A stretch of DNA of 62,258 nucleotides from an uncultured Planctomycetales bacterium (GTDB lineage: Bacteria > Omnitrophota > Gorgyraeia > Aquiviventales > Aquiviventaceae), in NCBI GenBank assembly GCA_964556925.1, contig CAZKXY010000003.1, forward strand, positions 1-62,258, given 5' to 3'. A program made the position numbers and the translations under genes. A model generated the notes under the pieces. That model worked only from the letters and a program-made list of their open reading frames with translations. It made no database searches and was not told where the DNA came from. Each line of letters opens with the position of its first letter. Within the stretch, counting starts at the first letter, position 1. Shown here one piece after another: positions 2,262-62,258 of this stretch.

Positions 2262-3173
2262 TCAGCTCACGTAGCCGAGCTGGCGGAGCATCCGCTCGTC
2301 CTGTCGCCACTGCGGAGCGACTTTCACCCACAGCCCCAGGTACACCTTGCGTCCGACGAGCCGCTCGATCTGGCGGCGCGCCTCCTGGCCGATCTGCTTG
2401 AGCATCGCCCCGCCCCGCCCGATTAGGATGGCTTTCTGGCCCGGGCGCTCGACAAGAATCGTCGCCTGGATGGTGACGAGCTGTTCGCCGTGCTCAAGGG
2501 CGTCGATCAGCACGGCGACCGCATGAGGAACCTCCTGGTGCGTGGCCAGCAGGGCCTGTTCCCGGACGAGCTCGCCGATCAACTGACGCGTGGTCTGGTC
2601 CGTCCGCTGGCCCGGCTCATACCAGCGCGGACCTTCCGGCAACAGGCTCACGAGGCGCTCCAGCAGCAGCGGCATCTGATCGCCGGTCCGCGCGGACACC
2701 GGGATCGCCTCTGCAAACAGGCGGGTCTTCGCGCAGGCCTCCAGGATGGGCAGCAGCCTCGGCTTCTTGACGAGGTCGATTTTGTTGATCGCGACGAGCG
2801 CCGGCCGCTTGGCCTGCCGGAGCCGGCCGAACACCCGCTCATCGTCGGGCGTGATGCCGGCGCGCGCGTCGATGACCGCGACGAGGACGTCCGCTTCTTC
2901 CACCACCGCGTGGGCGGCCTTCAGCATCGACCGGCCGAGGGCGTGCTCCGGCCTGTGGAACCCCGGCGTGTCGAGGAACAACACCTGCGCATCCGCGCGC
3001 GTCAGCACCCCGAGGAGGCGCGTCCGCGTCGTCTGCGGCCGGGGCGAGACAATCGCGAGCTTCTCGCCGAGGAAATAGTTGAGGAGGGTGGACTTTCCGA
3101 CGTTAGGACGGCCGATGATGCCGACGACGCCCGATCGGTAGCTCGGACTCAGCCGCCCAGATAGCGGGGTCAT
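2262..3173 (-). CDS. era: GTPase Era
   Basis: GRPNVGKST, QTTR, DTPG, NKID, KH domain with LGLWVKV; ATGA overlap with polX stop. Confidence 0.97.
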   Translation of the reverse strand: MTPLSGRLSPSYRSGVVGIIGRPNVGKSTLLNYFLGEKLAIVSPRPQTTRTRLLGVLTRADAQVLFLDTPGFHRPEHALGRSMLKAAHAVVEEADVLVAVIDARAGITPDDERVFGRLRQAKRPALVAINKIDLVKKPRLLPILEACAKTRLFAEAIPVSARTGDQMPLLLERLVSLLPEGPRWYEPGQRTDQTTRQLIGELVREQALLATHQEVPHAVAVLIDALEHGEQLVTIQATILVERPGQKAILIGRGGAMLKQIGQEARRQIERLVGRKVYLGLWVKVAPQWRQDERMLRQLGYVS

Positions 3174-4909
3174 CGCCGCGTCAAGCGGCGCCGCTTCTGC
3201 GCGATCCACATATGGAGCTGCTCGCGGGAGAAACAGTTGAGGAGGTGCCTCGGCCCCGCCCACGCGCGCCGCGCCACCCCGAGGCCGATGGCCATGTTGT
3301 CGAGCTGGTCTCGCGCATGGGTGTCGGTCGAAATGGCCAGCATGGCGCCGGCGTCCTTGGCCTGCCGGGCGGCGGTGTCGCAGAGGTCGAGCCGCTTGGG
3401 GTAGGCGTTGATCTCCAGCGCCGTCTGGGTCTCCTGGGCCGCCTTGTAGACCGCGTCGAGGTCAACCGGAGAGGCGTCGCGCTGGCCCATCAGGCGGCCG
3501 GTCGGGTGCGCGATCAGCGTCACGTAGGGATTGCGCATGGCGGTGATGAGGCGCCTCGTCAACATCGCTTCGCCCTGCGTCAATCCCGAGTGGATCGAGC
3601 CGATGACAAAATCCAGTTGGGCCAGCACCTGATCGGGGTAGTCGAGTCGTCCCTCGGCCAGGATATCCACCTCAGCGCCCATGAGCAGGCGGAAGCGCGT
3701 GAAGCGCCTGTTCAGCGCGCGGATCTTCGCCATCTGCTGCCGCAGCCGATCCACAGACATCCCATGGGCGACTTTCAGCGAGGGCGAGTGGTCGCAGATG
3801 GCCAGGTACTGGTAGCCACGCGCCTCCCCCAGCCGGGCGAGATCCTCCAATCGGTCGCTGCCGTCCGACCACGTGGTGTGGATGTGGAAATCCCCCCGGA
3901 TGTCCTCCGCCTCGACCAGCCGTGGCAGCCGGCCGGCCTTGGCCGCTTCGATCTCGCCGGTATCTTCCCGGAGCTCCGGGGGGATCCATCGCAGTCCCAA
4001 CACCCGGTAGACGTCAGCCTCTTCCCTGCCCGCGAGCCAGGCGTTGGCCCTGGCGCGAAACACCCCATACTCGTTGACCTTCAACCCCTGGCGGACCGCC
4101 AGCTCCCTCAAGTGGACGTTGTGCTCTTTCGAACCGGTGAAATACTGGAGCGCGGCCCCGAAACTCTTTGGCGCCACGACCCGCAGGTCCACCTGGAGAC
4201 CCTCGGGCGTTAGGATCGAGGCCTTCGTCGTGCCGGCCGCCAGCACCCGCGCGCAAAATCGGGACGCCTGGAGGGCCTGCATCACCCGGGGCGGATGCGT
4301 GGACGCCGCGAGGAGATCCAAGTCCCCGATGGTTTCCTTCATCCGCCGCAGGCTGCCGGCGGTTGACACCCGGCTCACCCCGGACACCTTCCGCAACAGC
4401 GCCAGCAGCTCATGGGCCAGCGCGAGGGCGATCCCCAAGTGCATCCGCTCGCGGCCGCGTTTGACCACGGCGATCCCTTTGAGGAGGTTGTCCTCCCTCT
4501 TCGCCTGGAAGCCCGGCAGGCCGCGCAGGCGGTGACGGCGCGCCGCGTCTTCCAACTCGCTGACACTGGCAATCCGCAGCCGCTCGGTGAGCAGCTTGGC
4601 CGTCTTCGGACCCAAGCCGGGCACTTCGAGCAGCTCCAACACCCCGCGCGGGATCATGCGTTGAACCTGCTCAATCGCCGCGATGGCCCCGGTCTTCAGG
4701 TACTCGGCGATCTTGTCAGCGAGATCGGCGCCGATGCCGGAGAGCTCCGTGAGCCTGCCCTCCGCCGCAAGGCGTTCCAGATCCCCGCTGAAGCTCTCCA
4801 GGTTCTGCGCGGCGCGCCGATAGGCCCGAATCCGAAACGGGTTCTCCCCGCGGTATTCCAACAGGTCGGCCATCTGCGCGAAGAGCGTGGCGATCTCGTG
4901 CTGCTTCAT
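3170..4909 (-). CDS. polX: DNA polymerase X / PHP 3'-5' exonuclease
   Basis: ENPFRIRAY, GSLRR.KETIGDLD, YFTGSKEHN, PHP HIHTTWSDG; ORF-track extension to 5035 is repeat sequence. Confidence 0.95.
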   Translation of the reverse strand: MKQHEIATLFAQMADLLEYRGENPFRIRAYRRAAQNLESFSGDLERLAAEGRLTELSGIGADLADKIAEYLKTGAIAAIEQVQRMIPRGVLELLEVPGLGPKTAKLLTERLRIASVSELEDAARRHRLRGLPGFQAKREDNLLKGIAVVKRGRERMHLGIALALAHELLALLRKVSGVSRVSTAGSLRRMKETIGDLDLLAASTHPPRVMQALQASRFCARVLAAGTTKASILTPEGLQVDLRVVAPKSFGAALQYFTGSKEHNVHLRELAVRQGLKVNEYGVFRARANAWLAGREEADVYRVLGLRWIPPELREDTGEIEAAKAGRLPRLVEAEDIRGDFHIHTTWSDGSDRLEDLARLGEARGYQYLAICDHSPSLKVAHGMSVDRLRQQMAKIRALNRRFTRFRLLMGAEVDILAEGRLDYPDQVLAQLDFVIGSIHSGLTQGEAMLTRRLITAMRNPYVTLIAHPTGRLMGQRDASPVDLDAVYKAAQETQTALEINAYPKRLDLCDTAARQAKDAGAMLAISTDTHARDQLDNMAIGLGVARRAWAGPRHLLNCFSREQLHMWIAQKRRRLTRR

Positions 4910-5049
4910 CCCACTACCTGCCGGTGTCCCGCCCCGCCAAGGGCGTGGCGGGACGGCCAGCCCCCACAGTCGTCCGCGGCCCGCTGGCCCGGCGGCGCCT
5001 CGATGCGGAGGGGCGGCACGCGCCGCCTGCAGCAAGTAGATGGGATCAT
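4906..5049. repeat. Family A palindromic element A1 (136 bp between two ATGA)
   Basis: Minus strand: ATGA-TCCCATCTACTTGC...GCAGGTAGTGGG-ATGA; left TGA is the MFS stop, right ATG is the polX start. Confidence 0.9.
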
Positions 5050-6242
5050 CCCGTCACCGCGCGAGGATCCGGAACCCGGCGCAACAGGAGGACGCCGATG
5101 ACCAGCAAGCCCATCATGGCCCCGATCGCCTCCTGATAGCGGGACGCCTCCGACACCAACAGCCCCCACAGCAAGGGGCCCAGGATCGAGGAGACGCGGG
5201 CGAAGAACCCCGCCAACCCGAACAACTCGGCGAGCTGGCCTTTGGGGGACAGCTGGACAATGAGCACGCGAGACGTCGCCCACGTCGAGCCCAGGCAAAA
5301 CCCAATGAGCGGCCCGGCAATCCAGAGCCAGGCGGCCGTCGGGCGGATGAGCAGGATGGCGAGGGCCGCGATCCATCCCAGCCAAATCCACGTCAAGGTC
5401 GACTTGGCCCCCCATCGGGCCGTCAGCCGCCCGAATACCAAGGAGCCAGCGACAGCGAAGATCTGACTGAACACGAAGAACCGGATCAGGTCGGCCTCCG
5501 TCATGCCGATGACCTTCTTCGTATAGACCCCCATGAACACCAGCACGGTATTGATGGCGTTGAGGCTGAAGAACGCGGCCCAGAAATACCGCCAGAGGCC
5601 GGCGAGCGCTCTCGCGGACCGGAGGGTCATGGCCAACCGGAGCGCCGCCACCCGCAGCGCCGTGCCCAGGGGCACCCGCTGGCGGGCATCCGGGGCCTCA
5701 CGAATGAGGAGGAAGCTGGGTAGCGCGAACAGCAAGAAGAACACGGCAGAGGGGATGAACGCGGCGTGATGCCCTCCCGCCTTGACGAACGGCCAGAGCA
5801 GGAGCAGTCCTAACGCGCTTCCCAGGTAGCCGAACGAGGCGCCGACCCCTGAGGTCTGACCCAGGCGGTTCGGATCCGTCACGGTCCAGAGCAACGCATC
5901 GTAAAACACCGTGCCAAGCTGATAGCACACGTTCGCCACCGCGAACAACCCAAGCCCAAGGCCGAGATGCGACGTGGACCCAATGGCGATGGTCGCCGCG
6001 ACACAGCCGTAGGTGGTCCAGCGGAGAAACCGGACCCGCTCCCCGGTGGCATCGGAGACCGCCCCGCAGAACGGCATCAAGATCCCGACGCAGATCATGG
6101 ACACGCCCAAGGCCACGCTGTACGAGAGCTCGGGCGCGCCGCGATCCTCGACGACCCAGAGGGGGAAGTAGAACGACAACATCGCGACGGCGAAAAAGGT
6201 GTTGGCGAGGTCGAACAGGGCCCAGGCGAGCACCCGGCCCAT
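5046..6242 (-). CDS. MFS transporter (UMF1/Atg22-like)
   Basis: AWALFDLANTFF start motif, about 12 hydrophobic segments. Confidence 0.9.
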   Translation of the reverse strand: MGRVLAWALFDLANTFFAVAMLSFYFPLWVVEDRGAPELSYSVALGVSMICVGILMPFCGAVSDATGERVRFLRWTTYGCVAATIAIGSTSHLGLGLGLFAVANVCYQLGTVFYDALLWTVTDPNRLGQTSGVGASFGYLGSALGLLLLWPFVKAGGHHAAFIPSAVFFLLFALPSFLLIREAPDARQRVPLGTALRVAALRLAMTLRSARALAGLWRYFWAAFFSLNAINTVLVFMGVYTKKVIGMTEADLIRFFVFSQIFAVAGSLVFGRLTARWGAKSTLTWIWLGWIAALAILLIRPTAAWLWIAGPLIGFCLGSTWATSRVLIVQLSPKGQLAELFGLAGFFARVSSILGPLLWGLLVSEASRYQEAIGAMMGLLVIGVLLLRRVPDPRAVTG

Positions 6243-15606: not shown

Positions 15607-15648
15607 GGTGTCAGACACCTTTCAAAGCGGGAAAGGTGTCTGACACCT
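15607..15648. repeat. Family C double palindrome C1
   Basis: GGTGTCAGACACCT-TTCAAAGCGGGAA-AGGTGTCTGACACCT. Confidence 0.9.
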
Positions 15649-22646: not shown

Positions 22647-23306
22647 TCACCTCATCGTATGGGGCAGATCCCCTAAGGGACACCGCCTGCACTCAGGCCT
22701 GCGCCGATGACAGAACCGCTTGCCGACCGCCACGAGCAGGGCATGATACTCGTTGTACGTGGCCGGCGGCGGGCCCTCCTGCATGACCAGCTGCTGCGCG
22801 TCATCATAGGTCGCGCGCGCCGACACGAGCCGGTGCCGCCTGAACACCCGCGCCGTGTAGGCGTCCACGACGAACACGGGCTTTCGGCCGGCGTAGAGCA
22901 ACATGGAATCGGCCGTCTCCGGCCCGATCCCGTTGAGCGCCAGGAGCTCCTGCCGCAGCCTCGGCCACGGCGTGCGAAACATCCGCGCGGGGCGCCCCCC
23001 GTAGCGCGCGAGATACCAGCGGGCGAAGCCGGCCAGCCGCCCCGCCTTCTGCCGGAAATACCCCGCCGGCCGGATCGCCTGGGCCAGCGTGCGCCTCGAT
23101 GCCGCTGCGATTCGCCGCGGCTGGAGCAGTCGGGTCCGCTTCAACCGCGCGATGGCCTGCTCGACATTGCGCCAGTTCGTCGCCTGCGTGAGAATGGCGC
23201 CGACCATCATTTCAAATGCGCTGTCGGCTGGCCACCACCCTTGCGGCCCGAACGCGCCCAGCAGGCGCCGGTAGATCACCCGAAGCGTGGCTGATGCGTC
23301 GTGCAT
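22647..23306 (-). CDS. Endonuclease III-related HhH-GPD protein
   Basis: WWPA, GAILTQ.TNWRNV, GIGPETADS, VVDAYT, EYHAL, Cys cluster at C-terminus. Confidence 0.9.
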   Translation of the reverse strand: MHDASATLRVIYRRLLGAFGPQGWWPADSAFEMMVGAILTQATNWRNVEQAIARLKRTRLLQPRRIAAASRRTLAQAIRPAGYFRQKAGRLAGFARWYLARYGGRPARMFRTPWPRLRQELLALNGIGPETADSMLLYAGRKPVFVVDAYTARVFRRHRLVSARATYDDAQQLVMQEGPPPATYNEYHALLVAVGKRFCHRRRPECRRCPLGDLPHTMR

Positions 23307-23547: not shown

Positions 23548-23587
23548 GAAAAAAAGCGGCTGCCCCGCGGGCACGCGGGACAGCCGC
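23546..23587 (-). terminator. Rho-independent terminator after the 49-aa gene
   Basis: Minus strand GCGGCTGTCCCGCG-TGCC-CGCGGGGCAGCCGC followed by TTTTTTTCTT. Confidence 0.85.
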
Positions 23588-23609: not shown

Positions 23610-23759
23610 TTACTTCGTGGAGACGACCTTTAGCCCCATCACCACGGCGAGGATCACGAGAATTCCCTTGTAGGCGTCCAGGGGAAAGTGTAGGCCGATC
23701 AAGGCACCCAGCACGATCCCTGTCAGGACGTCGTGCTTGAACAGTTTCTCAAGCTTCAT
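23610..23759 (-). CDS. 49-aa hydrophobic membrane peptide (below the ORF-track cutoff)
   Basis: MKLEKLFKHDVLTGIVLGALIGLHFPLDAYKGILVILAVVMGLKVVSTK; SD AAGGAGGTGA; own promoter and terminator. Confidence 0.8.
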   Translation of the reverse strand: MKLEKLFKHDVLTGIVLGALIGLHFPLDAYKGILVILAVVMGLKVVSTK

Positions 23760-23780: not shown

Positions 23781-23796
23781 CTAGACGTTTGTCTAG
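23781..23796. promoter_or_regulatory. Palindromic operator-like site / RNA hairpin
   Basis: CTAGAC-GTTT-GTCTAG; 12-bp core identical to 46911-46922. Confidence 0.65.
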
Positions 23797-23844: not shown

Positions 23845-23873
23845 ACTATACCACATTTGTCCCCATGAATCAA
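23845..23873 (-). promoter_or_regulatory. Sigma70 promoter of the 49-aa gene
   Basis: TTGATT (23873-23868), 17 bp, extended -10 TG-G-TATAGT (hexamer 23850-23845); AT-rich tract upstream. Confidence 0.7.
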
Positions 23874-23920: not shown

Positions 23921-24271
23921 TTAAAGTGCCGACAGATGGTGGGAGAGACGGTCTAAATACACAGACAAACGTCTCTTAGTTTGCGGGGTCAAATCGAGGA
24001 AGGTCACCCCGATATCAAATTGCTCGCTGTCCGGGATGTTCCGGAACCACACGGCGCGACCCCTGGCGGTGATGGGCTCTTCCCCGGGCTCGCAGACGAC
24101 CTCAACGGTGAACTCCGTGGACACCGGCACGACGGTGGCGCTCAGACAGCGCAGACCCTCAACGCTGAGGTCTTTGGTGAGGGTCTCCACCACCTGGGCG
24201 CTCGCCGGTTTGTACAGCCGAACTGGCCGGTAGGCCCGAATCCGCTGGTGCTGGCGCCGCTCGTCCATCAC
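23921..24271 (-). CDS. PilZ domain protein
   Basis: ERRQHQR and DLSVEG motifs, GRAVW, IGVTF. Confidence 0.85.
   Translation of the reverse strand: MMDERRQHQRIRAYRPVRLYKPASAQVVETLTKDLSVEGLRCLSATVVPVSTEFTVEVVCEPGEEPITARGRAVWFRNIPDSEQFDIGVTFLDLTPQTKRRLSVYLDRLSHHLSAL
23963..23974. promoter_or_regulatory. Third exact copy of the AGAC-N4-GTCT 12-mer (inverted), inside the pilZ 3' end
   Basis: AGACAAACGTCT, about 90 bp upstream of the -35 of the 49-aa gene. Confidence 0.45.
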
Positions 24272-44532: not shown

Positions 44533-45270
44533 TCAGGCCTCCTTGCGTTGGCGTCGCGTGCGTGGCGTGGCTCGCTGAGGCATGAGGCCAGCCGCGCGCA
44601 AACTGATAATCCCATCGGTGCCGATGATGACATGATCGAGCACCTCGATGCCGAGTATGGCGCCGGCCTCCGCCAGCCGGGCCGTCAAGACGAGATCGTG
44701 CTCCGATGGCTCCGGATCGCCGGAGGGATGGTTGTGGACGAGGATGACCGCGGCCGCCGACGCGGCGATCGCCTCGTGGAACACCTCGCGGGGATGGACG
44801 ACGCTGGCGGAGAGGCTGCCGACGGCGATCGGGCTTTCGCGGATGAGCCGATGCCGGGCGTCTAGCAGGAGGGCGACCACGTGCTCCTTCTGCTTATCGA
44901 GGAGGTGCGGCCGGACCAGGGCCGCGACCGCGTCCGGCGTGTCGACGGGGGGGCGACGGCCGTTGTGACGGGAGGGCAGGCTCAAGCGCCTGGCCAGCTC
45001 TGTCGCCGCCTTAAGCTGCGCCGCTTTGGCCGGCCCGAAGCCGTGGACCGCCGCGAGCTGCTCCACGGAGGCCTGCGCGATGCCCTGAAGGGTGCCGAAG
45101 GCCGCCAGCAGCCGCCGCGCGCTGATGAGCACGGACTCGCCGGCGACGCCGCGGCCGAGCACGCAGGCGAGCAGTTCCTGCTCGGAGAGCGCCTCGGTCC
45201 CGAGGCGGGCGAGCCGCTCGCGCGGCCGATCGGCAAGCGGCAGATCACGGACAGTCAAGCTGGGAGGCAT
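44533..45270 (-). CDS. radC: RadC / JAB domain protein
   Basis: RPRERL, VHPREVF, HNHPSGDPEPS, EVLDHVII. Confidence 0.96.
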   Translation of the reverse strand: MPPSLTVRDLPLADRPRERLARLGTEALSEQELLACVLGRGVAGESVLISARRLLAAFGTLQGIAQASVEQLAAVHGFGPAKAAQLKAATELARRLSLPSRHNGRRPPVDTPDAVAALVRPHLLDKQKEHVVALLLDARHRLIRESPIAVGSLSASVVHPREVFHEAIAASAAAVILVHNHPSGDPEPSEHDLVLTARLAEAGAILGIEVLDHVIIGTDGIISLRAAGLMPQRATPRTRRQRKEA

Positions 45271-45332: not shown

Positions 45333-45389
45333 GGGGACGCTTCTATTTTTTCCAACCGGATCTGTGCGGGAAAACATAGAAGTGTCCCC
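45333..45389. repeat. Family F inverted repeat F2, overlapping the dinB 3' end
   Basis: GGGGACGCTTCTATTTTTTCC...GGAAAACATAGAAGTGTCCCC. Confidence 0.75.
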
Positions 45390-45665
45390 GGGACTGTCGT
45401 TGCCACAGTCGCGTGGCGCGCACGAGCGCGGCGTCCCCGAACCGGTCGGTGATCCGGTCGCAGGCGCGCACGAGCCGCTCGTGCCGCGCCACCTCGGGCA
45501 GCCACCACGCCTGCCGCTCGGCGTAGGACAGTCCGGAGACCGCGATTCCCAGCATCCGGATCGGCTGGGCGAGCGGCGTCGCCGCGAGGATCCGGCAGCC
45601 GACGGAGTAGAGGTCCTCGCCATCGTCCAGGAATCGATCCAGGGTCCGCGCGCGGGACCAGGTCG

Positions 45666-45717
45666 TGAACCCCGCCCCACGGGATGTCGAGGTAGGCAGG
45701 CCGTGGGGCGGGGTGAA
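45666..45717. repeat. 44-bp palindromic insertion with 4-bp duplication, in frame in dinB
   Basis: TGAA-CCCCGCCCCACGG-N18-CCGTGGGGCGGGG-TGAA; removing 48 bp restores DFTTWSRART. Confidence 0.85.
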
Positions 45718-46461
45718 GTCGCGCGCGCGCAGCGTGAGGGTGACGGTCCGGCCCGACGCGCCGGCCAGGCGCAGGCGGCGGCCGACTTTCTCCGCCAGCT
45801 CCAGCAGCACCGCCCGCAGCCGCGCCGGATCGCCGGTATCGTGGGCGAGCGTGTGCAGGTGCCCCATCGATTTCGGCAACGGCAGGTGCTCCGCCCGCAC
45901 CACCGGCGCCTCATCCATCCCCCGCGCCAGCCGCCACAGATGCGCGCCCGCGCCAGCTCGCCGCAGGCCGCGATCCCCACGGCGTTGAGCGCCGCCTGAA
46001 ACGCCGGCCCGATCCCGCACAGCTCCTCGACGGGCAAGTCCGCGAGCACGACCGGCACCTGCGCGGCGGTGATCTGCATCAGGCCGTTCGGCTTCTGTCG
46101 CGAGGACGCCAGCTTGGCGATGAGCTTGTTCGGCCCGATCCCGATGGAGCACGAAAGGCCCAGTTCGCGCCGCACGGCGCGCTGCAACGTGGTCGCCACC
46201 GCCCTCGGCCCGCCGAACCGCGCGGCCGTGTCGGTCAGGTCGGCAAACGCCTCATCGATGGACACGCACTCGACGTCCGGCGTGTACTGCTCTATCCGGG
46301 CCGCGACTCGGCGGAAGAGCTGCGCGTACTGCTCCGGGTTGCCTTCGACGAGAATCGCGTGCGGACAGCGGGCGAGCGCTTCCTGCAGCGGCATGCCCGT
46401 GGTCACCCCAAAGGCGCGGGCCTCGTAGGAGGCGGTGGCCGCAACGGTGCGCGCCTGCCGG

Positions 46462-46515
46462 CCTGCCTGCGCCGCGCAATGACCTGTCCGGCCAGTCCTC
46501 GGCGCGGCAGGCAGG
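46462..46515. repeat. 54-bp palindromic in-frame insertion in dinB
   Basis: CCTGCCTG...CAGGCAGG termini; removal gives IVCGNRQARTV. Confidence 0.8.
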
Positions 46516-46621
46516 TTGCCGCAGACGATGACGGGTTTGCCCCGCAGCCAGGGGTTGGCCTGCTGCTCGACGCTCGCAAAGAAGGCATCCATGTCGAGAT
46601 GGAGGATGACGCGCTCCATGC

Positions 46622-46882
46622 TCAGCCCTCCAGCGCCAGGCGCGTGAGCTGCCAGCGCAGGCTGCGCGGCTCAAAGCGCAGCTCGTAGGCCGCCTCGCCG
46701 TCGGTCAGCGCAAAGCAGCGGCGCACCAGCTGCCCGTCCCGTTCGGTCCAGACGCAGGTCACCTGGCGCACAGGCCGCCGCCGGCCTTGCCACACGAAGG
46801 CCATCGGCCGCATCCCGCGCGGCGTAAAGCGCGCCTCCACCTCGACGACCTCTTCGATCCACTCGACCTGCGTGACGGTCAT
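46622..46882 (-). CDS. Small protein of the type often found next to dinB (DUF6504-like)
   Basis: P..F.WQGRR..V..V...W, F..TDG...YEL.F....W.L pattern (recalled resemblance). Confidence 0.75.
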   Translation of the reverse strand: MTVTQVEWIEEVVEVEARFTPRGMRPMAFVWQGRRRPVRQVTCVWTERDGQLVRRCFALTDGEAAYELRFEPRSLRWQLTRLALEG

Positions 46883-46902: not shown

Positions 46903-46931
46903 TCTATACCAGACGTTTGTCTGGTTGTCAA
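46903..46931 (-). promoter_or_regulatory. Consensus sigma70 promoter with an 18-bp palindromic operator in its spacer
   Basis: TTGACA (46931-46926), 17 bp, TATAGA (46908-46903); ACCAGAC-N4-GTCTGGT at 46908-46925. Confidence 0.85.
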
Positions 46932-46932
46932 T

Positions 46933-47583
46933 CTACCGCGAGCGGAGGACGCCGCGACGGGAACAGGCGTGGCTCAACGGGCAGCGGCTGCACCACGGCG
47001 AGGTGGGGTGGCAGAGGTTCTGGCCCAAGGTCACCAGGAGGTCGTTGTAGATGCGCCAGTACTGGCGCGGGAGCTTGCCGCGCAGCGCCATCTCGGTCTG
47101 CTCCGGCGTGTTCGTCCGCACGTAGCCCCAGCGGTTGCTGATGCGGTGGACGTGGGTGTCGACGCAGATGCCGTCCTTGGCAAACGCCAGCGTCACGACC
47201 AGGTTGGCGGTCTTGCGCCCGACGCCCTTGATCGCCAACAGCTCCTCGAGGTCCTCAGGCACCCGGCCGCCGTGGCGCGTCAGCAGCGTGCGGCACACGG
47301 CCCGGATCGTCCGGGCCTTCGTGCGATAGAAGCCGACGGGGAAGATCGCGCGTTCGATCGTCCGCGTCGAGAGGCGCAGCATGGTTCGCGGCGTACGCGC
47401 CAGATGGAAGAGCCGCTGCGAGGCGGCGCGCGTCGTCTCGTCTTTGGTCCGCAGGCTCAGGAGGCAGCTGATGAGCGTCGTGAACGGATCCTCGCGGTAG
47501 CGGCTGACGACCGGCTCCTCCCACCGCCGCACCACCCGCCTCACCGTGCGGAGAACCTGGTCGATATTGCGGTTGCTCACCAT
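46933..47583 (-). CDS. nth: Endonuclease III
   Basis: LLSLRTKD, GVGRKTANL, VDTHVHRI, C-X6-C-X2-C-X5-C. Confidence 0.93.
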   Translation of the reverse strand: MVSNRNIDQVLRTVRRVVRRWEEPVVSRYREDPFTTLISCLLSLRTKDETTRAASQRLFHLARTPRTMLRLSTRTIERAIFPVGFYRTKARTIRAVCRTLLTRHGGRVPEDLEELLAIKGVGRKTANLVVTLAFAKDGICVDTHVHRISNRWGYVRTNTPEQTEMALRGKLPRQYWRIYNDLLVTLGQNLCHPTSPWCSRCPLSHACSRRGVLRSR

Positions 47584-47598
47584 GGTGACTTGCGAAAA

Positions 47599-47676
47599 CC
47601 CTGCATGATTCGGAAAGAGCGGACCGTTTCCCTTTTCCTCTCGTTCAACTGGAGGAAAAGGGAAGCGGTCCGGCTG
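47599..47676. repeat. Family E element E2
   Basis: GCATGATTCGGAAAGAGCGGACCGTTTCCCTTTTCC...GGAAAAGGGAAGCGGTCCGGCTG. Confidence 0.85.
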
Positions 47677-47710
47677 GTGCGCTCGCAACGCTAGCGGTCC
47701 GGCTGGTGCG

Positions 47711-61237: not shown

Positions 61238-62258
61238 TCATGTGGCGCGGGATGACACCGGTTCAGCCGCCGCCCGATCCTTGGTCGGCTGCGGCCCAGG
61301 CTCATGCGCGCGGCTGCGAATCTGCTGCTCCAATTGCTGCATCAGCTTGGGATTCTCTCGGAGGAACAGCCGGGCGGCCTCGCGGCCCTGCCCGAGCTTC
61401 GCCTCGCCCGCGGAGAGCCAGCTCCCCTGCCGCTGGATGACCCCCACGGTCTCGCCGACGTCCAGGAGGCTGCCGGCCTTTGAGATCCCCTCGTCGAACA
61501 GGATGTCGAACTCCGCCTGGCGAAATGGGGGGGCCACCTTGTTCTTGACGATCTTCGCCCGCACGCGGTTGCCCACCGCGCGCTCGCCCACCTTGATGCT
61601 CTCCAGCCGCCGCAGGTCGATGCGGACCGACGCGTAGAACTTCAGCGCCCGTCCTCCCGGCGTGACCTCGGGGTTCCCGAACAGCACCCCGATCTTCTCT
61701 CGAAGCTGGTTGATGAAGATGCAGCAGGTCTTCGACCTGGCGATGGCCGCGGTCAGCTTGCGCAGCGCCTGGCTCATGAGCCGCGCCTGCAGGCCGACGA
61801 ACTGGTCGCCCATCTCCCCCTCGATCTCCGCGCGCGGCACCAGGGCCGCGACTGAATCAATGACGATCACATCGACCGCGTTGGAGCGCACGAGCGTCTC
61901 GGCGATCTCCAGCGCCTGCTCGCCGGTGTCCGGCTGCGACACGAGCAGGTCGTCGAGGTTGACCCCGATCGTCTTCGCGTAGGTGGGATCGAGCGCGTGC
62001 TCGGCGTCGATGAAGGCCGCCACGCCGCCGGCCCGCTGCGCCTCCACCAGGATGCTGAGGCTGAGGGTGGTCTTGCCCGAGGACTCCGGACCGAAGATCT
62101 CCACGACGCGCCCGCGCGGCACCCCGCCGATCCCCAGCGCCAGATCCAGCGCCAGCGACCCGGTGGGCACCGCCGGGATATCGAGCTTGGTGTCCTGCCC
62201 CAGCCGCATGATCGAGCCCTTCCCGAACTGCTTCTCGATCTGGCTGAGGGTCAGCTCC
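61238..62258 (-). CDS. recA: Recombinase A (5' end beyond the window)
   Basis: [42 protein letters not shown]. Confidence 0.98.

Follow-up and report, generated by a model that had tools for sequence, protein, structure and literature searches.

The window analyzed here (the whole stretch of 62,258 nucleotides) carries nearly all of its genes on the minus strand, and one of its intergenic gaps harbors a perfect palindrome lodged between the two hexamers of a predicted promoter. The question raised by this locus is whether the palindrome serves as an operator and, if so, which regulator would recognize it. Reading of the sequence confirmed the arrangement described in the first-pass annotation, i.e., a perfect 18-bp palindrome in the 17-bp spacer of a TTGACA/TATAGA promoter. 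On the minus strand, TTGACA-ACCAGACAAACGTCTGG-TATAGA is located inside the 50-bp gap between an nth-like gene and an 86-codon gene, with the following elements:

46926..46931, minus strand: −35 hexamer TTGACA, read from the sequence; the same hexamer occurs in the orthologous promoters of loci L004 and L008
46903..46908, minus strand: −10 hexamer TATAGA, preceded by TGG at 46909-46911, which makes it an extended −10
46908-46925, no strand assigned: 18-bp perfect palindrome ACCAGAC-N4-GTCTGGT with the core AGAC-N4-GTCT at 46911-46922, the proposed LexA operator

The −35 hexamer starts one base downstream of the stop codon of the nth-like gene (46935-46933), the −35 and −10 hexamers are separated by 17 nt, and the ATG of the 86-aa gene (46882) is positioned 20 nt past the −10 hexamer. 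The GTCTGGTATA of the extended −10 region is common to many related promoters. The palindrome, with a 7+4+7 layout, occupies the entire spacer and the first base of the −10 hexamer. Operators of the LexA class show dyad symmetry over ∼14–20 bp, which suits a dimeric winged-helix repressor, and the 18-bp palindrome has such symmetry. As is typical of LexA operators, it also overlaps the core promoter predicted here, and the same register was found in L004, L008, L019, L066, L069, and L072. A simple promoter scanner made no call at the TTGACA/TATAGA promoter because it demands T at the last −10 position. Promoters of the MerR family have overlong spacers of 19–20 bp; a MerR-type activator site was ruled out since the spacer here has the optimal length of 17 bp.

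The genes on the two sides of the gap were identified as follows:

46933..47688, minus strand: nth-like HhH-GPD DNA glycosylase (Pfam HhH-GPD; NCBIfam nth at 173 bits, below the equivalog cut-off)
46622..46882, minus strand: 86-aa small protein, a borderline DUF6504 member and the first gene after the operator
45343..46619, minus strand: Y-family (DinB-like) polymerase gene (Pfam IMS 3.8e-46; catalytic motifs DMDAFFASVE and SIDEAF)
44533..45270, minus strand: radC (Pfam RadC 1.3e-42; NCBIfam RadC at 243 bits)

The genes downstream of the operator are classic SOS cargo. The small gene ends 3 nt ahead of the polymerase gene, radC is probably co-transcribed with both, and a TIGR04073-family protein and an NTPase are encoded further behind the promoter. 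The adjacency of dinB and radC is kept in L008, and the nth-like gene is a conserved neighbor of the small gene, with synteny in L004, L008, L009, and the P0020 contig. The promoter had been proposed to drive a DUF6504-like gene, dinB, and possibly radC; this order was read in the sequence, the small protein being encoded first and dinB being frameshifted. The polymerase gene is broken near 45948-45951 by a frame change and the loss of ∼13 codons, and beyond residue ∼225 its translation becomes Arg/Trp-rich nonsense. A tblastn search of the window polymerase with the intact L008 orthologue returned two pieces in different frames. Three further assemblies of the organism have only a C-terminal 191-aa IMS_C product in their JGI and Logan gene calls; since these imply the same break, it is probably real and not an assembly error. 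With dinB frameshifted, the main cargo of the operon may therefore be non-functional here. Compared with the intact orthologue in L008, the window polymerase also has two insertions, of 18 and 16 aa.

The 86-aa protein scored 16.7 bits against Pfam DUF6504 (PF20114), below the gathering threshold of 24.2 bits. Among its distant relatives, four of ten representatives scored 24.4–33.4 bits, and the small-protein family therefore borders on DUF6504. The AlphaFold2 model predicted an all-beta protein of seven strands (pLDDT 78.6), and a Foldseek search against the PDB showed no significant fold match (best E 0.86). The family comprises at least 661 cluster representatives, the best 150 listed all being 68–127 aa long, and the small protein is encoded beside dinB in many lineages; the pairing recurs in nine other loci. 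A profile search of the genome contigs with the small-protein alignment found no relative, and a literature search on DUF6504 found nothing relevant. In relatives, the gene order is small gene–LemA–DUF2207–dinB–radC; hence, the immediate gene of the operator is the small protein and not dinB. Membrane-protein genes for LemA and DUF2207 separate the small gene from dinB in L004 (10282-12482) and L008 (1493-3800), and an RDD-domain gene follows the small gene in L009 and the P0020 contig. The window organism either lost these genes or never had them.

The copy number of the motif in the window was evaluated with the pattern AGACNNNNGTCT, which gave three matches, at 23783, 23963, and 46911. In shuffled sequences, AGAC-N4-GTCT had a mean of 0.50 matches and 3 of 100 shuffles reached three, so that the count alone is marginal. 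All three sites are the identical 12-mer AGACGTTTGTCT, one of them inverted, and the exact recurrence of the 12-bp core noted earlier, at 23783-23794 and inverted at 23963-23974, was borne out by the pattern count. By our arithmetic, a given 12-mer of such composition is expected ∼1.5e-3 times per window at 68% GC, the earlier rough estimate having been ∼1e-3. With up to two mismatches, seven matches were found in the window against 1.72 expected, and none of the 100 shuffles reached seven. The one-mismatch copies elsewhere in the window are almost all intragenic, consistent with chance. The three copies could also represent chance occurrences or a dispersed REP-like repeat devoid of a regulatory role, as a family of REP-like hairpins in the window contains CAGACAC and the degenerate AGAC-N4-GTCT pattern is only marginally enriched. 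Against this, three identical 12-mers are far beyond chance by the same arithmetic, the flanks of the three copies are unrelated, the REP family differs in both sequence and geometry, and the core is conserved in orthologous promoters of other organisms. This cross-lineage conservation largely refutes an origin by chance or repeat, which is the least probable of the explanations weighed here.

The second and third copies of the 12-mer are found at a small-peptide locus:

23783..23794, no strand assigned: site 1, part of CTAGAC-N4-GTCTAG and located in the 5′ UTR of the peptide gene, whose Shine-Dalgarno sequence follows after 4 nt
23963..23974, no strand assigned: site 2, inverted, inside the 3′ end of a PilZ-domain gene (PilZ 5.2e-13)
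23845..23873, minus strand: predicted promoter of the peptide gene, TTGATT-17-TATAGT with TG (promoter prediction)
23610..23759, minus strand: gene of a 49-aa hydrophobic peptide (MKLEKLFKHDVLTGIVLGALIGLHFPLDAYKGILVILAVVMGLKVVSTK; from translation), a candidate damage-induced small membrane protein
23556..23587, minus strand: strong intrinsic-terminator-like hairpin (14 pairs and a T-run), which closes the peptide transcription unit

Site 2 is positioned 180 bp upstream of site 1, a distance of ∼17 helical turns. Since two exact copies flank the promoter of the peptide gene, the 49-aa membrane-peptide gene is probably a second member of the regulon. Comparison of the peptide with Pfam returned no family. 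SOS-induced small membrane proteins exist elsewhere, and the 49-aa peptide is reminiscent of these. The peptide promoter offers a third, degenerate candidate in its spacer (GGACAAATGTGG), but three of the eight core positions mismatch and it was considered too weak to claim. A second HhH-GPD glycosylase (22647-23306; best NCBIfam match 3-methyladenine glycosylase, below the cut-off) is encoded on the same strand as the peptide, ∼250 bp past the peptide terminator, and has no motif copy of its own; the same was observed for a PolX gene at 3170-5035 (570 bits).

Conservation of the motif was assessed at orthologous promoters, which were reached through similarity of the small protein and not through the motif, the contigs being read afterward. 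In L004 (MAG GCA_016209275.1), where the small protein is 70% identical, the promoter reads TTGACA-CCTAGACTTCCGTCTGG-TATATC, and in L008 it reads TTGACA-AGCAGACAGGCGTCTGC-TATATA. Both retain the AGAC/GTCT core in the same register between the hexamers but differ in the 4-bp spacer and the outer flanks. The L008 operon consists of the small gene, LemA, DUF2207, an intact 474-aa polymerase, and radC. As an exception, the small gene of L009 and L010 is placed 12 bp after nth with no promoter of its own. Overall, the motif was found at orthologous promoters of translesion genes, i.e., those of small-protein/dinB operons, in L004, L008, L013, L027, L032, L037, L038, L045, L051, and L055. The conservation expected of an operator at orthologous dinB-operon promoters was thus observed in L004, L008, and the loci of the pattern scan described below, with the core kept at the same position.

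A core and register that are kept while the spacer and flanks diverge form the pattern expected of a protein-binding site and not of an RNA stem. This bears on the possibility that the palindrome acts as RNA, in the form of a hairpin that ends the nth transcript or belongs to a read-through leader, whether as a stabilizer, an attenuator, or a terminator. A 7-bp stem with a 4-nt loop is possible, and it lies 8 nt past the nth stop codon. However, there is no U-tract after the stem, the terminator scan was empty, and the regional folding energy is ordinary (z = −0.75), which together ruled out the palindrome as the nth terminator. Moreover, the AGAC/GTCT stem bases are invariant across lineages and do not co-vary, and the −35/−10 register is fixed, also at lexA genes that have no upstream nth. 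A role of the palindrome as an RNA hairpin is very improbable.

Public genomes and metagenomes were scanned with the pattern TTGACA-N3-AGAC-N4-GTCTG-N-TATA, which returned 16 loci in species-representative genomes, where ∼4 chance matches would be expected by our arithmetic, and 37 in metagenomes. In three of these loci (L019, L035, and L059), lexA is directly downstream. The LexA of L019 (Hydrogenedentes UBA6118) showed the Pfam domains S24 and LexA_DNA_bind and scored 151 bits with TIGR00498, that of L035 scored 201 bits with TIGR00498, and that of L059 is partial with a typical N-terminus, MEELTKKQKRVLDFIVEQIRLNGSPPTIRE. Eight further loci are small-protein and dinB operons, from organisms of 47–70% GC. 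Since the pattern scan is biased toward the motif, four LexA homologues were picked by protein similarity to the L019 LexA alone, and their promoters were read as follows:

L066 (P0181, MAG labelled Verrucomicrobia): TTTGCA-TACCAGACATTTGTCTGG-TGTACT, heading lexA-imuA-imuB-dnaE2
L068 (P0160): AACAGACATAAGTCTGGTATGCAT, heading lexA-imuA-imuB-dnaE2
L072 (P0210): TTGACA-TACCAGACATATGTCTGC-TATCTT, lexA
L069 (P0233): TTGCAT-ACCATACAAATGTATGC-TATACA, lexA; ATAC-N4-GTAT variant, site at 3940-3965

Three of these four motif-independent picks carry AGAC-N4-GTCT and the fourth (L069) carries ATAC-N4-GTAT, in all cases between a −35-like and a −10-like hexamer. In other lineages, the motif was found at seven lexA promoters, where it would allow autoregulation (L019, L035, L059, L066, L068, L072, and, as the ATAC variant, L069). 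Among the loci fetched by protein, each of L064–L068 has exactly one AGAC-N4-GTCT, at the lexA promoter, and none was found in L005–L007, L009, and L010. The window palindrome shares its arms, ACCAGAC/GTCTGGT, unchanged with the lexA promoters of L019 and L066. A consensus of YAGAC(A)nn(T)GTCTGS was derived from 15 sites, with AGACA-N2-TGTCT as the preferred inner bases. The LexA of L069 has Ser in place of Ala at the start of the recognition helix (FRSVQTAREHL), and this change is a candidate specificity determinant for the ATAC/GTAT variant. In L035 and L059, the N-terminal domain of LexA is of a type that differs from the L019 clade, yet the same operator precedes the gene; the recognition helix reads KSLRGVTIHL in L035 vs. 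RAVQTAREHL in the L019 clade, the helix of L059 not being on record. The lexA transcript of L035 would be essentially leaderless, and the 5′ end of this gene (950-1010) was seen to contain a perfect 18-bp tandem duplication (TCAAGCCGGTTCACCGGT twice), rich in GTTC repeats and encoding SSRFTG twice.

Taken on the sequence comparisons, the palindrome is assigned a probability of about 0.78 of being a LexA operator through which RNA polymerase is kept from the small-protein/polymerase/radC operon. A LexA dimer encoded elsewhere in the genome would bind the dyad, which occupies the full 17-bp spacer from TTGACA to TGgTATAGA, and would thereby exclude RNA polymerase from the promoter of the genes for the small beta-protein, the Y-family polymerase, and RadC. 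Upon DNA damage, RecA-stimulated self-cleavage of LexA would free the promoter. Here we infer LexA as the binder, the LexA type of the organism, and the damage-inducibility of the operon. In agreement with the first-pass annotation, no lexA was detected in the window, either by Pfam scans that covered most of its ORFs or by tblastn searches in which two LexA proteins served as queries. Its proposal that AGAC-N4-GTCT is the SOS box of this lineage gained from the orthologous promoters and from the lexA promoters of other lineages, and its lineage-specific part stands as an extrapolation across lineages.

A copy of the motif had also been anticipated upstream of recA, the gene at the edge of the window:

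61238..62258, minus strand: recA, 5′-truncated by the window end, with its start ∼50 nt beyond the window and its promoter outside

The promoter was reached via the full-length RecA, whose relatives carry the NCBI label 'Omnitrophica' and place the window organism in a high-GC lineage; the anticipated copy did not materialize. No AGAC-N4-GTCT was found, even with one mismatch, in the 277 bp examined for the window organism (L005) or the 146 bp for a relative (L007), and neither promoter contained any of the other LexA box types checked, including GAAC-N4-GTTC. The recA gene is divergent from cinA, with a TATAAT −10 conserved between L005 9727-10000 and L007 9858-10000, and genes of an HtrA-like protease, recX, and alaS are present downstream. 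REP-like intergenic hairpins, e.g., AGGTGTCAGACACCTTTCCCGCTTTGAAAGGTGTCTGACACCT, were observed in the window at 15627, 24321, 31077, 50203/50233, and 54640, and also at L005 9750-9920. This family counts six copies vs. 0.07 expected, and two copies are upstream of recA. Each arm (GGTGTCAGACACC) is itself palindromic and contains TGTC-N-GACA, an everted arrangement of the operator half-sites, which is probably a coincidence.

The absence of a site at recA would fit another possibility, in which a factor other than LexA, e.g., a winged-helix repressor, uses the dyad as its operator to control this operon as well as, in other lineages, lexA. The presence of two types of LexA N-terminal domain behind the same operator points in the same direction, as do seven Elusimicrobia loci (L017, L018, L020, L024, L029, L044, and L054) in which the same operator-promoter, with the operator TAGACA-NN-TGTCTG, precedes the gene of a 208-aa protein composed of a MarR-like wHTH and a nucleotidyltransferase, possibly self-regulated. 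However, LexA autoregulation is the rule for lexA and lexA-imuA-imuB-dnaE2 operons, and the site heads such genes in seven independent loci, four of them motif-independent picks. Moreover, no candidate regulator gene is conserved beside the regulated operons, and no transcription factor was found among the window ORFs scanned. A regulator other than LexA therefore appears unlikely, and LexA is retained as the probable binder. The Elusimicrobia wHTH-nucleotidyltransferase gene may itself be either autoregulated or a LexA target. It starts 9 nt after the operator-promoter and is therefore effectively leaderless, and an extra half-site, TTAGACAT, overlaps its start codon.

Other loci were found behind the same operator-promoter. 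In three Acetothermia-like loci (L011 at 5600-5700, L056, and L057), TTGACA-ACCAGACATTTGTCTGG-TATAAT is followed by a conserved leader of ∼90 nt (GCATGCAACGGGCAACCGATCCCTCATCACAA...GGGATGTGGATT...) with stem potential and no convincing ORF. Rfam gave no match in nine motif-bearing loci, including this leader, which may be a damage-regulated small RNA or leader. In L033, L047, L048, L049, L058, and L061, which are contigs of 1.6–4 kb and 44–47% GC, the operator-promoter drives Lys-rich peptides of 34–46 aa, most of them ending in ...YH, and a conserved protein of ∼232 aa (MALIRFPEGQQRSGS...) is encoded after the tiny peptide. These contigs may be small viral or plasmid genomes with an SOS-type switch. 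L023 (a Thermoguttaceae MAG) has two tandem operator-promoters (3791-3817 and 5465-5491); behind each come a ∼150-nt leader and the gene of a Cys-rich protein of 94 aa, either membrane-bound or secreted. Several pattern matches adjoin unrelated genes (ylxM, rplJ, feoA, and transporters), and several Clostridia matches before unrelated genes are probably noise.

With little better than even odds, AGAC(A)-N2-(T)GTCT, along with its ATAC/GTAT variant, would be an undescribed LexA motif shared across mostly uncultured lineages, served by at least two divergent LexA types and governing a small, mutagenesis-centered regulon that does not include recA. Its users would be Hydrogenedentes, a lineage of high GC content under the label Omnitrophica, and MAGs labelled Verrucomicrobia, possibly joined by Acetothermia and Armatimonadota. 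The regulon would consist of lexA, imuA-imuB-dnaE2, the small-protein/PolY/radC operon, and the small membrane peptide. Full-text literature searches combining the motif with LexA found no publication describing AGAC-N4-GTCT, and a search on LexA in Omnitrophica found nothing relevant.

Among the known LexA boxes, the Gram-positive or Cheo box, CGAAC-N4-GTTCG, is used by Firmicutes, Actinobacteria, and Chloroflexi. The window motif resembles it in being a 4-bp-spaced dyad with the inner AC-N4-GT that overlaps lexA and Y-family polymerase promoters, consistent with occlusion, but the tetramer is AGAC/GTCT and not GAAC/GTTC. GAAC-N4-GTTC itself had zero matches in the whole window. The LexA motif of Verrucomicrobia is reportedly TGTTC-N4-GAACA; the similarities with this system lie in the relatedness within the PVC group, a 14-bp N4 dyad, and a small regulon around lexA and imuA-imuB-dnaE2, whereas the lexA-imuA-imuB-dnaE2 operon of L066, from a MAG labelled Verrucomicrobia, carries ACCAGACATTTGTCTGGT and not TGTTC-N4-GAACA. 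The cyanobacterial box, RGTAC-N3-DGTWCB, has the same geometry and shares TAC-N4-GTA with the ATAC-N4-GTAT variant of L069, but differs in the outer bases, the lineage, and the LexA clade. Hence, AGAC-N4-GTCT is apparently, as judged from these sequences, one more N4-spaced LexA box of the Gram-positive type in several uncultured phyla, and the kind of system is itself not new. By the count of a 2021 paper (PMC8565304), 17 LexA motifs have been described; other published ones are TTAC-N3-GTAA, GGTT-N10-AACC, GTTC-N7-GTTC, CTAA-N5-TTAG, and a direct repeat in Balneolaeota.

The gene arrangement also has counterparts. Operons of a stand-alone ImuB-C with an active Y-family PolY, often together with lexA, have been reported (Timinskas and Venclovas 2019, PMC6511836), and the Geobacter sulfurreducens operon lexA/imuB-C/polY is described there as damage-induced and LexA-controlled (Jara et al. 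2003 via PMC6511836). As in that module, a small beta-rich protein, here the predicted all-beta 86-aa protein, is encoded directly upstream of a Y-family polymerase with the residues of a catalytically competent enzyme (frameshifted in the window), and the recA promoter is free of the motif. The title of Jara et al. 2003 (via PMC6511836) provides Geobacter as a precedent for recA sites not being universal in LexA regulons. In contrast, the Geobacter box is GGTT-N10-AACC (quoted in PMC8565304), and lexA lies outside the operon here. The likeness to the ImuB-C modules is one of gene position; an hhalign comparison of the small-protein family alignment with two single ImuB sequences showed no match, the probabilities being 1.5% and 0.2%. 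In Bacillus subtilis, the small beta protein YqjX (YolD-like) is co-transcribed with the Y-family polymerase gene yqjW and SOS-induced (PMC6511836); unlike YolD (PF08863), to which no match was found in the window, the small protein here belongs elsewhere, and the operator also differs.

LexA is a textbook case of a regulator that is itself conserved but has switched its binding motif many times. If the proposed assignment is true, it would add a data point on the drift of the N4-spaced Gram-positive-type box (GAAC, GTAC, and now AGAC/ATAC), and the natural AGAC vs. ATAC variation, paired with a single Ala/Ser change where the recognition helix begins, could serve to test specificity. The little-understood modules of a small beta-protein and a Y-family polymerase, as well as a small membrane peptide, would likewise be linked to the damage response, and SOS regulons would become predictable in candidate phyla that have never been studied experimentally.
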